A DNA stretch of 64,000 nucleotides from IMG/VR virus record IMGVR_UViG_3300013286_000725, positions 32,001 to 96,000 of that record, one strand, 5' to 3'. The position numbers and the translations under genes were made by a program. Origin of the DNA: a virus. Below, in pieces: positions 1,508-21,382 of this stretch. Each line of letters begins with the position of its first letter. Position 1 is the first letter of the stretch. The notes below the pieces were generated by a model. It saw nothing but the letters and a program-made list of their open reading frames with translations. It made no database searches and was not told the origin of the DNA.

Positions 1508-2320
1508 ATGTTTTTAAGAGAGCTAACAGAAAACTTTGCAGACGGTCGCAATCCAGAACATAAGGGCGACAGTCGTAGACACGGCATTCCTAAACATGCC
1601 AGTCTAAAGTCATTAGATAAAATTGCACATCAAGGCGGACGCAAAGGACAGCTGGCTCATTGGCAAGCTAACATGCGCAGAGGTAGAATGAAGGAAGACA
1701 TTGACAGTCCAGACCTTGTTGATATACTGGCTAAATTTTTACCTTTCTGCATGAAGTCATTAGAACTAAAACAGTTGCCTAAGATCAAATTAGAAAAGCA
1801 GATAAATGCAGGACCACAGCCTACCTTTGGCATGTTTGATCCAGATGCTAGTACAATTACACTAGGCATTAGTAATCGTCATCCTTTGGATATTATTCGA
1901 ACACTGGCTCACGAACTAGTACACTATAGACAAGCTGTTGAAAATAGGTTAAATGACGAAAGTGGTACTACAGGCAGTGATGAAGAAAACGAAGCCAACG
2001 CAGGTGCTGGTATATTACTGCGTAGTTTTGGCAAACAACATCCGGAATTTTTTGCGGTAAAGCCTATATCACTCAGTGAGGAAATGATGAGAATACAAGA
2101 ACTAGTACAAGAAGATGCCACCGCAGGCGGAACAAGTGCAGGAGCAATTGCCACTGTGCCTAATCCGCATGTGGCCATTGGAAATGTTAAAAAATATGGA
2201 AAAGGTGCGTCTGCAAAGCCACCTAAGGCAGCACAGGCTTTAAACAAAGACGGCACTGCTAAAAATGCCCTAGATTTGCCAGGCGCAAGTTTAATGGGCG
2301 GCAAGTTACTGAAACGATAA
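1508..2320 (+). CDS. modular protein with HExxH metallopeptidase-like domain, possible head protein
   Basis: RTLAHELVHY plus downstream ENEANA; start placed at ATG 1508 just after the lysin stop. Confidence 0.65.
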   Translation: MFLRELTENFADGRNPEHKGDSRRHGIPKHASLKSLDKIAHQGGRKGQLAHWQANMRRGRMKEDIDSPDLVDILAKFLPFCMKSLELKQLPKIKLEKQINAGPQPTFGMFDPDASTITLGISNRHPLDIIRTLAHELVHYRQAVENRLNDESGTTGSDEENEANAGAGILLRSFGKQHPEFFAVKPISLSEEMMRIQELVQEDATAGGTSAGAIATVPNPHVAIGNVKKYGKGASAKPPKAAQALNKDGTAKNALDLPGASLMGGKLLKR

Positions 2321-3636: not shown

Positions 3637-4407
3637 ATGGACATGCGACGAATTCTACAAGCAGTTGACAGTTCAGCATCAAAGCCTGTAGAAGGCGGCG
3701 AGACTATGAAAAAGTTTATGACCATTGTTGAAGGCAAGAGTTCTAGTAACAGACTAACTACTGCCGAATCAATGGTAATTGAACAACCCGCTATTGTTAC
3801 ACGCAAAGAAATAACTAGTCCAGTATTGAATGTTGCTAAAGATGCTAGCCCCAGCATGATTGGCAAATACTTTAAAACTATAGAACAAGAACTCAAAGAG
3901 GCTGAGGATCGCACACGGGATCGTACCAAGCAATTAGCTGAGCGTGTGGCCAATAAGATCAACAACCAACGCATTGCAGAACTAAGCACTGACACATTGG
4001 CCAGTTATAAAAAGAAAGCAGGTGCAGATGCCAAAAAGGCAGATGCAGATGGCAACTATGCTCGTGGTGACAAGCGTTTCAAAGGTATTAACAAAGCTAC
4101 CAGCAAACAGTTTGACAACGATCTCAAAAAACATGGTCAACAAAGTATGTCGGAAGCAGAAGGTACACCAAGTGGTGTTGCACACCTGACCAAAGAGTTG
4201 TTGACACACATTGTACAACAATCTGGTAAAGAAGGTGCTCACGCTGTTGTCAAAAGCCTAGAGTGGGGCGACGGTGCTGCCAAAGAACTTTTACATTTGC
4301 TAATTAGCGATCTTAAAGACGATATCGCAGGTATGGATGAAGCAGTTAATCCAGCACAACAAGCAGCCATTGCCATTGCAAAGAAGAAAACGGCAGGTAA
4401 GAAATAA
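3637..4407 (+). CDS. modular hypothetical protein, putative internal head protein
   Basis: Long ORF; N-terminal MDMRRIL; same x-x-E delimited modules. Confidence 0.7.
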   Translation: MDMRRILQAVDSSASKPVEGGETMKKFMTIVEGKSSSNRLTTAESMVIEQPAIVTRKEITSPVLNVAKDASPSMIGKYFKTIEQELKEAEDRTRDRTKQLAERVANKINNQRIAELSTDTLASYKKKAGADAKKADADGNYARGDKRFKGINKATSKQFDNDLKKHGQQSMSEAEGTPSGVAHLTKELLTHIVQQSGKEGAHAVVKSLEWGDGAAKELLHLLISDLKDDIAGMDEAVNPAQQAAIAIAKKKTAGKK

Positions 4408-4850
4408 TGGATGAATTAAAACAAGCATTGAAAGTGGCATTTGCCAGCGAATATTCATTTGCGATTAAAACACAGAACTTTCACTGGAATGTTGAAGGCA
4501 GTGATTTCTACGAACTACACTTGATGTTTGAGAGAATTTATCTTGAGGTATACGGAGCCATTGATCCATTTGCTGAAAATATTCGTAAACTAGGTTCATA
4601 CACTCCAGCTAGCTATAGCAGATTCAGTATGTTAACTGAAATTGATGACGAGACACAGATACTTGCGCCCGGTGCAATGGTAAGTGAATTACTCGGTGAT
4701 AGCGATAAGATGGTTAAATTATTGAAGATGGTGTATGATGCAGCCGAGAGAGAAGGCGAGCACGGATTAAGTAATTTCCTTGCCGAACGCATGGATGCAC
4801 ATCGAGGACATAGTTGGATGTTGAGGGCAACACTAAAGAATTCACCTTAG
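4407..4850 (+). CDS. dps: Dps / ferritin-like DNA-protection protein
   Basis: NFHWNVEGSDFYELHLMFE, D-x-x-AENIR and H-x-W-M-L ferroxidase-centre signatures. Confidence 0.93.
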   Translation: MDELKQALKVAFASEYSFAIKTQNFHWNVEGSDFYELHLMFERIYLEVYGAIDPFAENIRKLGSYTPASYSRFSMLTEIDDETQILAPGAMVSELLGDSDKMVKLLKMVYDAAEREGEHGLSNFLAERMDAHRGHSWMLRATLKNSP

Positions 4851-4931
4851 GACCGGTACTCGTTACCGTAATGTGAATAGGCGGCTGCTGCCTGTACAAA
4901 CGATTCGCTACCGTGGAATACCAAGTGAGCA
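4840..4931 (+). ncRNA. candidate structured RNA (multi-stem with pseudoknot), family unknown
   Basis: ATTCAC/GTGAAT enclosing CGGTA/TACCG; AGGCGG/CTGCCT; ACG/CGT around loop ATTCGCTAC; 3' AGTGAG complementary to loop TTCGCT. Confidence 0.5.
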
Positions 4932-4957
4932 TGAACAATTAAAATTGGGGTTATTAA

Positions 4958-6961
4958 ATGGATATCAGATCATTAATCAGTGTGTTAGAAAACATTGAAA
5001 GTTTAAATCGAGCACCTGTTGTGGAGGCTGAAGATCCAGCGGCCGTTATTGCCAAATATACAGATAAACCCGATATGCCAGCATACATTGACAGTAAAGA
5101 CGGCAAAGTCAAATACATGGATAACAATATGGATCGTGGCAGGGCCGGACAAGCTAAAGTTATGCCTACAGATTGGATTGAGCGTTATGCGCCGGATCTA
5201 GCTGCCGCATTAAGAGCACAAGGTGGTAACCAACAAGGTTACGGTGCTCAACAAAAGGGCGGATTGTTTGGCATTAAAGGTCTTGGTAATTTTGATCAAG
5301 GAACTACTGTTAATACTAAACAAGCCGGTGCCGATGCTAGTAGTAAATCATACAAAGCAGACAAGTTAAAGCAATTAAGTGATCTAGTAGCTAAACTAAA
5401 TGCAGAAGGCGGTGGCAACACTGATCCTACTGTTGGTAAGGTAGACTACAGTCTAGGTGGCGGAAGCTCACCTGGTATGAAATTAAAAGAAAGCATTCTT
5501 CGTGAATTTGGTTACGAAGTTGATGAAGGCGGCATTACATTAGGTGCTGATGGAAAAGTTGACCCTAACGGACATACTCCAGAAAAACAAATGGCATTGA
5601 GCAAAATGGTCGGCGACAACATGAATGCCGCCGCGGGTAAAGATGCAATTATTAAACAAATCCAAGCCATTATGGCCGAACTTGGCCAATCAGACCAAGC
5701 ATATGCTACTGATCCAGATGTTATCAAAGCATTAGGTATTGCACAAAAAGCTATCGATGCTGCTAGCAAGAAACCAGATGCGGCAAAACCAACAACAGAT
5801 ACTCCGGTAGCTGGCAAACCAGATGCAACTGCAGCTGCCAATTCCAGTGGAGAAGCTGTTGGAAAGAGTCTTCAAAGATTTAAAGAATTATTGGCCAAGG
5901 CAAGCGAGCCTGCAACGGCAGCAACACCTACGGCTCCAGCAAAAGAAAACATATCTTATTTCTTAGAAAAGATGAGAGTGTTAGAGTCGCAATTAAATGA
6001 AGCGTTAACTCCTGACGAACAAAAAGAATTAGATCAGTTGGCACAATCATATGGTGACAGCGAAGATCCAGAAATTACAGGATTACTAAAGCAATATGGC
6101 GATGCTAAGAATGCCGCATTAAATGCTACTCCCGGTTCTAAACCTACATCTACAACAGCCACTAAGAAGAAATCAATGACTCCTGTTGATCCAAAGGTAC
6201 AAGCATTGCAAAACGACATTTTGGCAATTGATCCAAAAGCATTGCCTAAATACGGTGCCGACGGGCGTATGGGCAGTGAGACACAGACTGCTATGAAAGA
6301 TGCAAGATTCAAAGTTGCACTGGACAAATACAATGGTGATGGCTCTACTGCAACTAAACCTAGTACTGGTGCCGCGGGCGGTGCAAGTGCTGTTCCAGCA
6401 GATGCTAGCACAAAAGAACCATACTGGGTAAATGGCACACGCTACGAATATAAAATGTCAGGTGGTGGACGAGGTCAGGCAGCTACTGGAAAATGGGAAC
6501 CAACGGCTACGCCAACTGATAAACTTCAATGGAATAGCACACGAGCTCGTTCTATGGCCAAGTACACTGGGCCAGACTCTGCATATGGTAAAACAGATGC
6601 TGCCAATCCAACTGATACTACTGCCGCTGAACCAACGGCATCTACTACCGCAACTAAGCCTGCAACTACAACTTCCAATCAATCGGTATCCGGAACATTA
6701 AAAATGGGCAAGGCAGATGGCTCAATTACCTATAATGGTAAGACTGTAAATCCAGGTGATCCAGAATATGCTACAGCTGAACAAGCTCTTATTCGAGCAC
6801 AAGGAAAGTCTCAACAAGCTAGGACAAGGCAACCAAATAACCCTGCGTTAGCTAGTACACCTGTTCAGCAAGGTGCATCACAACAAAAAGATATTGATTT
6901 TGAAAGTGTTGTTAGAGAAGACAATGCTATCTTAGCAATGATCCGCGGTATTAAAGTCTAA
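4958..6961 (+). CDS. Ala/Thr/Gly-rich virion protein with peptidoglycan-binding-like domain
   Basis: VQALQNDIL...GADGRMGSETQTAM resembles a PG_binding_1 domain; low-complexity linkers. Confidence 0.65.
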   Translation: MDIRSLISVLENIESLNRAPVVEAEDPAAVIAKYTDKPDMPAYIDSKDGKVKYMDNNMDRGRAGQAKVMPTDWIERYAPDLAAALRAQGGNQQGYGAQQKGGLFGIKGLGNFDQGTTVNTKQAGADASSKSYKADKLKQLSDLVAKLNAEGGGNTDPTVGKVDYSLGGGSSPGMKLKESILREFGYEVDEGGITLGADGKVDPNGHTPEKQMALSKMVGDNMNAAAGKDAIIKQIQAIMAELGQSDQAYATDPDVIKALGIAQKAIDAASKKPDAAKPTTDTPVAGKPDATAAANSSGEAVGKSLQRFKELLAKASEPATAATPTAPAKENISYFLEKMRVLESQLNEALTPDEQKELDQLAQSYGDSEDPEITGLLKQYGDAKNAALNATPGSKPTSTTATKKKSMTPVDPKVQALQNDILAIDPKALPKYGADGRMGSETQTAMKDARFKVALDKYNGDGSTATKPSTGAAGGASAVPADASTKEPYWVNGTRYEYKMSGGGRGQAATGKWEPTATPTDKLQWNSTRARSMAKYTGPDSAYGKTDAANPTDTTAAEPTASTTATKPATTTSNQSVSGTLKMGKADGSITYNGKTVNPGDPEYATAEQALIRAQGKSQQARTRQPNNPALASTPVQQGASQQKDIDFESVVREDNAILAMIRGIKV

Positions 6962-7384: not shown

Positions 7385-7654
7385 ATGTCAACTCGCATGT
7401 ACGGACCAGAAGAAAAAGCCAAACTTGAACGACTAATTAATGAAGGATCTACTGTTCTTCGTGAAATCGAGGACCTTAAAGAAGGACTCAAAGAAACCGT
7501 CAAAGCAGTAGCAGAAGAATTGGAAATCAAACCTGGTGTTATTAACAAAGCTATTACCATTGCACATAAAGACAATTGGAAAGCTCACGAAACCGAATGG
7601 GCAGATGTTGAAATGATTTTGGGTGTTACTGGACATTTGCCAGAAGACAAATGA
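7385..7654 (+). CDS. T4 DsbA-like dsDNA-binding protein
   Basis: AGGAG RBS before ATG 7385; EIEDLKEGLKETVKAVAEELEIKPGVINKAITIAHK resembles phage DsbA. Confidence 0.6.
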   Translation: MSTRMYGPEEKAKLERLINEGSTVLREIEDLKEGLKETVKAVAEELEIKPGVINKAITIAHKDNWKAHETEWADVEMILGVTGHLPEDK

Positions 7655-20519: not shown

Positions 20520-21382
20520 GTAAGATTAAGATAGCAGAATTATTTTATAGTATACAAGGCGAAGGACGCTACATGGGAGTGCCCAGTGTGTTCCTTAGAA
20601 CTTTCGGCTGTAATTTCCGCTGTGCAGGTTTCGGCATGAGTCGAGGCATGTTTAGCGAGGAAGCTGATGAGATTGCCAGTGTTGCTCATATGTTTGAAAA
20701 ATACGAAAACTTGCCACTAGTCAGCACAGGCTGTGACAGCTATGCCAGCTGGCATCCCAGTTTTAAAGAACTAAGTCCAATGCTCACTAGTGACGCTATT
20801 GCAGATCGTATCTGCGAAATTATTCCACACAACGAATGGCGTGATGAACATCTTGTTATTACAGGTGGCGAACCCTTGTTGGGTTGGCAACGGGCATATC
20901 CAGACTTGTTGAGTCATCCTAAAATGCAAGGTCTTAAAGAAATTACATTTGAAACTAACGGTACTCAAAAACTAACTTCAGAGTTTAAAACATATCTGGC
21001 AAATTGGATTGACGGAGATGCTAATGGGCATTTACGAAATGGCAACAGTCTCACATTCAGTGTAAGTGCCAAACTTCCAGCAAGTGGAGAAAAGTGGGAG
21101 GATGCTATTTGTCCGGAAATTGTTTGTGAATATGAACAAGTTGGTACAGCATATTTAAAGTTTGTTGTAGCAACAGAGCAGGACATTGCTGATGCCGAAT
21201 GTGCAGCAGGCGCTTATCGTGCGGCAGGATTTACTGGACACATTTATCTAATGCCAGTAGGCGGTGTGGAAAGTGTTTATACCTTAAATGCAAAGAATGT
21301 AGCTCTAGCGGCAATGAAGCGTGGCTGGAGATATAGTGATAGACTACAAGTGCCACTATTTAAAAATGAGTGGGGTACTTGA
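20516..21382 (+). CDS. queE: 7-carboxy-7-deazaguanine synthase (radical SAM)
   Basis: ELFYSIQGEG, FLRTFGCNFRC...GCDS, VITGGEP, FETNGT, SVSAKL, LKFVV. Confidence 0.92.
   Translation: MSKIKIAELFYSIQGEGRYMGVPSVFLRTFGCNFRCAGFGMSRGMFSEEADEIASVAHMFEKYENLPLVSTGCDSYASWHPSFKELSPMLTSDAIADRICEIIPHNEWRDEHLVITGGEPLLGWQRAYPDLLSHPKMQGLKEITFETNGTQKLTSEFKTYLANWIDGDANGHLRNGNSLTFSVSAKLPASGEKWEDAICPEIVCEYEQVGTAYLKFVVATEQDIADAECAAGAYRAAGFTGHIYLMPVGGVESVYTLNAKNVALAAMKRGWRYSDRLQVPLFKNEWGT

Follow-up and report, generated by a model that had tools for sequence, protein, structure and literature searches.

Two loops of a pseudoknotted small RNA in T4-related jumbo phages are antisense to the helix 69/70 region of the 23S rRNA

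The TURBS motif of caliciviruses and influenza B virus pairs with helix 26 of the 18S rRNA and lies inside the upstream coding region, where the stop and start codons overlap. In turnip crinkle virus, a 3' T-shaped structure serves as a ribosome-binding 3' translation enhancer, and its tRNA-like shape binds the P site. The intersubunit bridge B2a, beside the decoding centre, is formed by the helix 69/70 region of the 23S rRNA; drugs and toxins already target this region, and its conservation is universal. To our knowledge, the bacterial and phage sRNAs described so far target mRNAs, and none hits the functional core of the 23S rRNA via two loops on a pseudoknotted scaffold. Self-splicing introns in rRNA genes carry guides complementary to the 23S rRNA at about positions 1917-1951, and their expression retards the growth of E. 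coli (Raghavan et al. 2008, as cited in PMC4990558). The intron RNAs were reportedly also found by Raghavan et al. to associate with ribosomes. Literature searches for a phage RNA complementary to the 23S rRNA returned no description of one.

Here we analyse an intergenic element of a viral genome that is a member of a large, undescribed family of small RNAs in T4-related jumbo phages. It is well supported that this RNA family is new, widespread, structured and pseudoknotted and that it is absent from Rfam. From its sequence, the RNA of the jumbo phages of the T4 supergroup, including PA5oct, might pair through its two loops with helix 69/70 of the 23S rRNA and so block, capture or reprogramme the 50S subunit or its assembly. 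We consider this possible and put it forward tentatively.

The window, which is the whole 64-kb stretch of DNA that was analysed, is part of an IMG/VR virus record of 105.8 kb. The record is estimated to be about 30% complete at this length, and its source is therefore a jumbo phage. The element was located in the 107-nt gap between two ORFs of the + strand (4407-4850 and 4958-6961). In the original prediction the upstream gene was called dps, and this proved correct, as the ORF at 4407-4850 (+) in the ORF list encodes a Dps/ferritin-like protein (PF00210, E = 1.6e-20; phrog_3636). Its stop codon TAG (4848-4850) is the UAG within the invariant block CCUUAGGACC of the element. The downstream ORF of 667 aa (4958-6961, +), which has an SD-like GGGG at 4946-4949 ahead of it, had been labelled a virion gene. 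This label found no support in Pfam or PHROGs, where the ORF matched no family. It is also not a conserved neighbour of the element, since a relative was present in only 14 of about 130 related loci. Further downstream, a homologue of the T4 DsbA-like 86-aa protein is encoded at 7385-7633 (+; tblastn, 45% identity, E = 1.6e-19). The gene for this protein is the commonest gene downstream of the element in the relatives and serves as a syntenic anchor; in cultured jumbo phages it is annotated immediately ahead of the DNA polymerase gene. A PDB sequence search with the 86-aa protein gave no significant match. Among the sequencing runs searched, the locus was well represented only in the freshwater source sample, and no RNA run was listed.

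The whole RNA element (4835-4933, +) was matched by the family covariance model R1 with 68.4 bits (E = 5.8e-13), and neither the 64-kb window nor the full 105.8-kb record contained another credible match. A weak second match at 20843-20949 (-) lies inside an ORF and was rejected as a chance match. When the sequence was checked, every pairing listed in the original prediction was found. The P1 domain (4840-4878, +) is closed by ATTCAC (4840-4845) and GTGAAT (4873-4878). It encloses CTTAGGACC and the small hairpin P1a (GGTA 4855-4858 with TACC 4864-4867), which is optional, as some relatives have it and others do not. Within P1 lies block 1, ACCTTAGGACCG, of 12 nt (4844-4855, +), the near-invariant core of which is CCTTAGGACC across the family. 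The P2 hairpin (4879-4893, +) is formed by AGGCGG (4879-4884), the loop CTG and CTGCCT (4888-4893). Its apex reads GG-CTG-CTG, and the loop GCU (4884-4886) is the partner of the tail. The P3 hairpin (4894-4921, +) consists of an outer stem of GTA (4894-4896) and TAC (4919-4921), an inner stem of ACG (4900-4902) and CGT (4912-4914), a purine-rich internal loop and the terminal loop ATTCGCTAC (4903-4911). Block 3, TTCGCTACC, of 9 nt, covers 4904-4912 (+). The 3' tail AAGTGAGC follows at 4923-4930 (+). The features that define the family are present in the window: the P1 loop with CCUUAGGACC at 4845-4854, which was near-invariant also in samples that were not chosen by the loop pattern; the P3 hairpin with its internal loop and the 9-nt apex AUUCGCUAC (4894-4921); and the pseudoknot between the P2 loop and the 3' tail (GCU 4884-4886 with AGC 4928-4930).

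The described RNA classes were then compared with the element. The search with Rfam covariance models, which had been proposed as a check in the original prediction, was run with Rfam 15 and matched no described family: nothing was found in the 64-kb window at gathering scores, and at E <= 10 no match to a riboswitch, ribozyme or phage RNA overlapped 4835-4935. The earlier statement that the element does not resemble a hammerhead, twister, pistol, hatchet or HDV core was thus borne out by the respective models, which gave nothing even at E <= 10. It had also been said not to be a tRNA cloverleaf, and ARAGORN found 0 tRNA or tmRNA genes within the window. Likewise, no promoter-like or terminator-like site was detected in the gap 4851-4957, in agreement with the earlier view that an element lacking a U-tract is not a terminator. 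The sequence 3' of the tail varies among the relatives. A blastn search of GenBank phages gave no match for the 1.2-kb locus, and for the 101-nt element only marginal 24-nt matches in ICP1 (E = 3). The stretch had been described as GC-richer, which holds to a slight degree only (0.48 versus about 0.34-0.46 nearby). The minimum free energy of the + strand was -23.4 kcal/mol compared to -22.3 +/- 3.5 kcal/mol in shuffles (z = -0.32), and the z-score of the - strand was 0.03. Since the folding of the single sequence is no better than chance, the case depends on the comparison with relatives.

Relatives were gathered in three ways: from contigs linked to Dps, by a DNA pattern scan of viral contigs and from contigs linked to the 86-aa protein. 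The element was carried within 3 kb, and always on the gene strand, by 35 of the 80 viral contigs fetched via the Dps protein. The pattern scan of viral contigs gave at least 120 matches, nearly all of which were true members. On 63 of the 80 contigs fetched via the DsbA-like 86-aa protein, the element was found not more than 1.5 kb upstream on the same strand; this contig set is a sample that was not selected by the loop sequences. In total, 158 distinct homologues were obtained from jumbo-phage contigs, with RNAs of 80-105 nt. When bacterial and archaeal genome assemblies were scanned with the pattern, one true member was found among the 120 matches listed, on a MAG contig (L328); all the others listed were chance matches to the loose pattern. 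The covariance model detected two copies, one of them divergent, in a complete genome of 352.7 kb with terminal repeats, and one copy each in genomes of 338, 300 and 289 kb.

One clear member was found in the cultured Pseudomonas phage PA5oct (MK797984.1, 115465-115563), between EST35_0189 and EST35_0190. It is unannotated, and its sequence is identical across 11 PA5oct-like P. aeruginosa phages. Both loops are exact in this member, and the P2 loop and the tail differ yet remain complementary. The four ncRNAs published for PA5oct lie elsewhere in the genome and not at 115465-115563 (PMC7318152). Some members depart from the common layout. In L051, L063, L066 and L208 the AUUCGCUAC apex of P3 is replaced by a longer arm, GGG-AGUCGUG-CCCC, and block 1, P2 and the tail are kept. 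In L390, L366, L379 and their relatives, GUAGAGAACACAGCC was observed about 20-40 nt upstream of the element, where it resembles the element's 5' flank AAGAACACAGCCUUAGG. This upstream stretch may be the remnant of a partial duplication.

The helices were first examined in an alignment of 34 sequences. There, 97% of the cells were paired, 7 of 10 pairs had changed on both sides and 0 of 500 shuffles were as good, while the slid controls collapsed. An independent sample of 47 sequences had 93% of the cells paired, again with 0 of 500 shuffles as good. Three covarying pairs were found in P2, with 98-100% pairing, and three in the inner stem of P3. P1 and the outer stem of P3 shift their register between members and were therefore tested without an alignment by a permutation in which the arms swap their partners. 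The cognate arms paired far better than the swapped ones, with 0 of 1000 permutations reaching their level for each of P1, P2, P3a and P3b. For P1 the test covered 75 distinct arm pairs, and for the outer stem of P3 it gave z = -12 (0/1000). Because conserved G.U pairs were present, the RNA was assigned to the + strand.

For the tail, pairing either with the P3 loop or with the loop of the middle hairpin, P2, had been suggested, and the second of these was confirmed. In 105 sequences, the loop and tail bases were C:G in 94 cases and G:C in 11, with 0 mismatches; at the second position they were G:C in 104 and A:U in 1. The whole helix was swapped for other complementary pairs in L021, L054, L364 and PA5oct, namely GCUAC/GUAGC, GAACCCUA/UAGGGUUC, a CCGG-based pair and, in PA5oct, GCUGU/GCAGC. 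The pairing of the tail with the P3 loop had been picked by RNAalifold on a plain MAFFT alignment and was rejected when further tails were seen to vary at the GU (AAUGAGC, AACGAGC, AAAGAGC) alongside an unchanged P3 loop. Compensatory changes in homologues, on which the original prediction had been made to depend, were accordingly found in every helix and in the pseudoknot. Taken together, they show that the RNA folds into the three hairpins P1, P2 and P3, of which P1 carries an inserted hairpin in some members, and that the tail is locked onto the P2 loop.

The near-invariant loops CCUUAGGACC and (A)UUCGCUAC are antisense to adjacent segments of the 23S rRNA in the helix 69/70 region. The complement of CCUUAGGACC lies within the I-CeuI site of the 23S rRNA, and a 40-mer around this complement was matched by the 23S rRNA gene of every E. 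coli genome in the comparison (5,426). Over 12 nt, block 1 is exactly antisense to the canonical positions 1920-1931 of the E. coli 23S rRNA, a segment made up of the 3' strand of helix 69 and the linker that leads to helix 70. Block 3 is a 9-nt exact antisense of 1929-1937, which adjoins the target of block 1, so that both loops jointly are the exact antisense of 18 continuous nucleotides (1920-1937) that run from helix 69 through the linker into the 5' strand of helix 70. The calculated duplexes have a dG of -20.3 kcal/mol for block 1 and -14.4 kcal/mol for block 3, in each case at the best site in the whole 23S rRNA. Among the 158 distinct members, the antisense run through block 1 was 9-15 nt long in 154 and the run through block 3 was 8-11 nt long in 157. 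Random 101-mers of the window contained a 12-nt antisense run in 1.5% of the trials. Pairs of a random 10-mer and 8-mer from the window matched neighbouring rrn sites in 4 of 1,000,000 trials, a p-value that is post hoc because the idea arose after the sequences had been seen.

The divergent members were also inspected for the complementarity. Both loops are kept in PA5oct, L054 and L364 despite their different P2-loop and tail sequences. A shifted or lengthened antisense run was observed in members with CUACCUUAGGACC, CCUUAGGACCGUUA, UCGCUACCUU and UUUCGCUACCU, of which UUUCGCUACCU comes from L359 and UCGCUACCUU from the second of the two copies in the complete genome. The P1a hairpin resembles an antisense helix 69, with which it shares UAGUUAC. 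Five of eight single substitutions in the loops were A>G opposite U or C>U opposite G, which keep the pairing to the 23S rRNA; this wobble bias was not statistically significant (about p = 0.17). A sense target of block 1 was not found in five phage genomes. In L051, L063, L066 and L208, the P3 apex GGGAGUCGUGCCCC had no antisense match in the E. coli rRNA. Separately, the P2 apex GCGGCUGCUG (window 4881-4890) was noticed to be a 10-nt antisense of the 530 loop of the 16S rRNA (519-528). This complementarity is within chance when taken alone and is lost in L054, L364 and PA5oct, and it was discarded.

A possible distant relative was observed in the Vibrio phage ICP1 (HQ641347.1, about 81041-81092, - strand), in an unannotated gap of all ICP1 isolates. 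There, the shared 5' flank AAAGAAUUCAC is followed by CCUUAcGACCGUUAU, a 9-nt antisense of 23S helix 69, and by GAcUCGCUACC. An outer helix AAUUCAC/GUGAAU apparently closes the whole element. Block 1 of this candidate has an internal mismatch, and its covariance-model score was only 20 bits.

The surroundings of the element were compared across the relatives. In every case the element occupies the gene strand and comes immediately after a stop codon. In about 87% of the loci, the end of the upstream ORF lies 5-13 nt ahead of block 1 or coincides with its UAG. About one fifth of the related loci end the upstream ORF at the UAG within CCUUAGGACC, and in these the translation of the upstream gene must unfold P1. 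The next ATG lies between 2 and about 150 nt past the element, and in about one third of the loci it is located 9-16 nt past the tail without a Shine-Dalgarno sequence. From stop to start, the distance is about 100-130 nt. More than 35 clusters of downstream genes were distinguished; they are unrelated to one another and include DsbA-like, dps, radical SAM, fatty-acid desaturase and cupin genes as well as unknowns. Of 21 distinct cases with the DsbA-like gene downstream, 20 had a canonical promoter of the type TTGACA-N17-TATACT/TATAAT between the element and this gene; elsewhere, the tail is directly followed by a NATAAATA late-type box. Since a promoter precedes the next gene in most relatives, the element is not the 5' UTR of that gene. 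It thus sits at the 3' end of the upstream transcription unit. This position and the small number of copies per genome speak against a riboswitch, against a recoding signal and against a terminator or promoter of general use. A read-through or frameshift stimulator was rejected, as the spacing between the stop codon and the element occurs in all three frames and the genes upstream are not the same, and a repeated promoter or terminator signal was ruled out by the copy number.

The late-type boxes were also observed in another respect. Many downstream genes, for example in L016, L084, L092, L100 and L130, begin 3-9 nt past a NATAAATA(C/T) box that resembles a late promoter, and they lack a Shine-Dalgarno sequence. 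Late mRNAs of these phages may accordingly be leaderless or nearly so. Within the window, most NATAAATA(C/T) boxes are found 19-26 nt ahead of an ATG with GGAG in between.

Our best reading of these comparisons, which we favour tentatively, is a stand-alone or processed ncRNA that would base-pair with the host 23S rRNA. The RNA would be transcribed together with the upstream gene; the element lies past the stop codon of this gene and before the next promoter. It would probably be released, or else act as a 3' domain. The RNA would then work in trans by base-pairing of its two loops with the host 23S rRNA. Likely targets would be nascent or late-assembly 50S particles with a still unfolded domain IV, or the exposed helix 69 of the free 50S subunit, and the outcome would be an altered ribosome assembly or function during infection. 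A role in trans fits better than one in cis with the one or two copies per genome of 300-350 kb, the varied neighbours and the promoter before the next gene. Several points speak against the pairing with the 23S rRNA. The target is base-paired or buried in the mature 50S subunit, and the pairing therefore needs an unfolded or dynamic target. In addition, a 10-bp duplex formed from a 12-nt hairpin loop is sterically strained, and a part of block 1 is often paired inside P1. The P3 apex of L051, L063, L066 and L208, which is unmatched in the E. coli rRNA, and the mismatch inside block 1 of the possible ICP1 relative count against the pairing as well.

A structured RNA with some other activity is a somewhat unlikely alternative. 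The element could be a new self-cleaving ribozyme, a scaffold for proteins or a ligand binder with the loops as its active or binding site, and the complementarity to the 23S rRNA would be the relic of a captured antisense rRNA fragment or a coincidence. A compact pseudoknotted fold with invariant blocks of bases is seen in small ribozymes, which are common in intergenic positions of phage genomes like this one. The compensatory changes in P1a also keep the hairpin and not the complementarity to helix 69. However, no ribozyme or riboswitch model of Rfam matched even at the permissive threshold, and the invariant bases are located in hairpin loops, not in junctions, and find no complement elsewhere in the RNA. 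It is very improbable that chance alone would make both loops antisense to neighbouring rRNA sites, and this match is retained or even lengthened in the divergent members.

We regard it as unlikely that the element is a TURBS-like device acting in cis, which would use pairing with rRNA to keep the ribosome, or its large subunit, in place after termination, so that the next ORF is reinitiated. This would suit the stop codons close to the element in about 87% of the loci, the nearby start codons without a Shine-Dalgarno sequence in about a third of them and the window itself, where no promoter was seen between the element and the ORF at 4958. In most contexts, however, promoters intervene (of the sigma-70 type before the DsbA-like gene in the 20 of 21 cases, and NATAAATA elsewhere). 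The flanking gene pairs differ among the phages, the copy number per genome is low and the distance of about 100-130 nt from stop to start counts against it as well. Moreover, the complement is an RNA of the large subunit, whereas reinitiation needs the small subunit to be kept on the mRNA.

That the element forms the 3' end of the upstream transcript, as an unusual terminator, an exonuclease block or a signal for RNase processing, appears distinctly unlikely. In favour of this reading, terminators usually sit where the element does, at the close of a transcription unit and just ahead of the next promoter, and the element is compact and pseudoknotted. It has, however, no U-tract and no terminator-like site, and it occurs only once or twice in genomes of several hundred genes. 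The 19 invariant loop bases that are antisense to the 23S rRNA would also be left unexplained. A riboswitch or thermosensor controlling the downstream gene would suit the compact, conserved fold and its place ahead of a same-strand ORF, but is highly improbable because the downstream genes are mutually unrelated, promoters intervene before them and no alternative pairing with a ribosome-binding site was seen. The original prediction had left the choice between a ribozyme, a riboswitch and a small structural RNA; an uncharacterised small structural RNA is upheld by the covariation and the missing Rfam match, and the riboswitch has become unlikely from the context and the promoters.

If the pairing of the two loops with the 23S rRNA is true, the element would provide the first natural example of an anti-rRNA RNA from a bacterial virus, and the phage would act on the RNA core of the ribosome by an RNA and not by a protein. 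A host take-over in which a phage RNA acts on this core was not found in Rfam or in the searched literature. A natural RNA ligand of helix 69/70 would be relevant to ribosome biology, to ribosome assembly and to antisense antibacterials. The family is present in hundreds of environmental jumbo phages, and PA5oct is a tractable P. aeruginosa phage with published transcriptomes, which makes the idea of 23S pairing directly testable. Should the rRNA reading fail, a well-supported new family of structured RNAs with a defined pseudoknotted fold would still be at hand.

Compared with the known systems, the element is like TURBS in that a short conserved viral RNA complementary to host rRNA is found beside a stop codon and a following ORF. 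It differs in that two loops are complementary to the 23S and not to the 16S rRNA, the element lies past the stop codon with about 100 nt or more between stop and start, promoters usually intervene and the flanking genes vary. With the turnip crinkle virus element it shares a size of about 100 nt, three hairpins with pseudoknots and a place near a 3' end. The plant virus element binds the large ribosomal subunit, and the proposed partner of the phage RNA is the 23S rRNA; in contrast, the former does not base-pair with rRNA and belongs to a eukaryotic plant virus, and homology is not expected. Among T4-type phages, the species 2 RNA of T4 (rnaD; 1554-1672 (-) of L419) is a small stable RNA with an invariant 5' hairpin, CCGG-GUCGCUA-CCGG, and 8 nt of its loop GUCGCUA(CC) are antisense to the 23S site of block 3. 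The covariance model had no match in T4, however, and the homologues of rnaD do not conserve AAGGAAUU, which looked like a second antisense block. The 8-mer match alone is within chance and is a weak lead. T4 rnaC had no relevant match. The trans-acting sRNAs and ribosome-associated ncRNAs of bacteria, archaea and yeast resemble the element in their short exposed complementary loops, and some of them are cut from 3' UTRs. The self-splicing introns are several hundred nucleotides long, reside in the rRNA gene and each carry one contiguous guide, whereas the phage RNA has about 90 nt and no intron core and presents two antisense blocks in separate loops and in permuted order.
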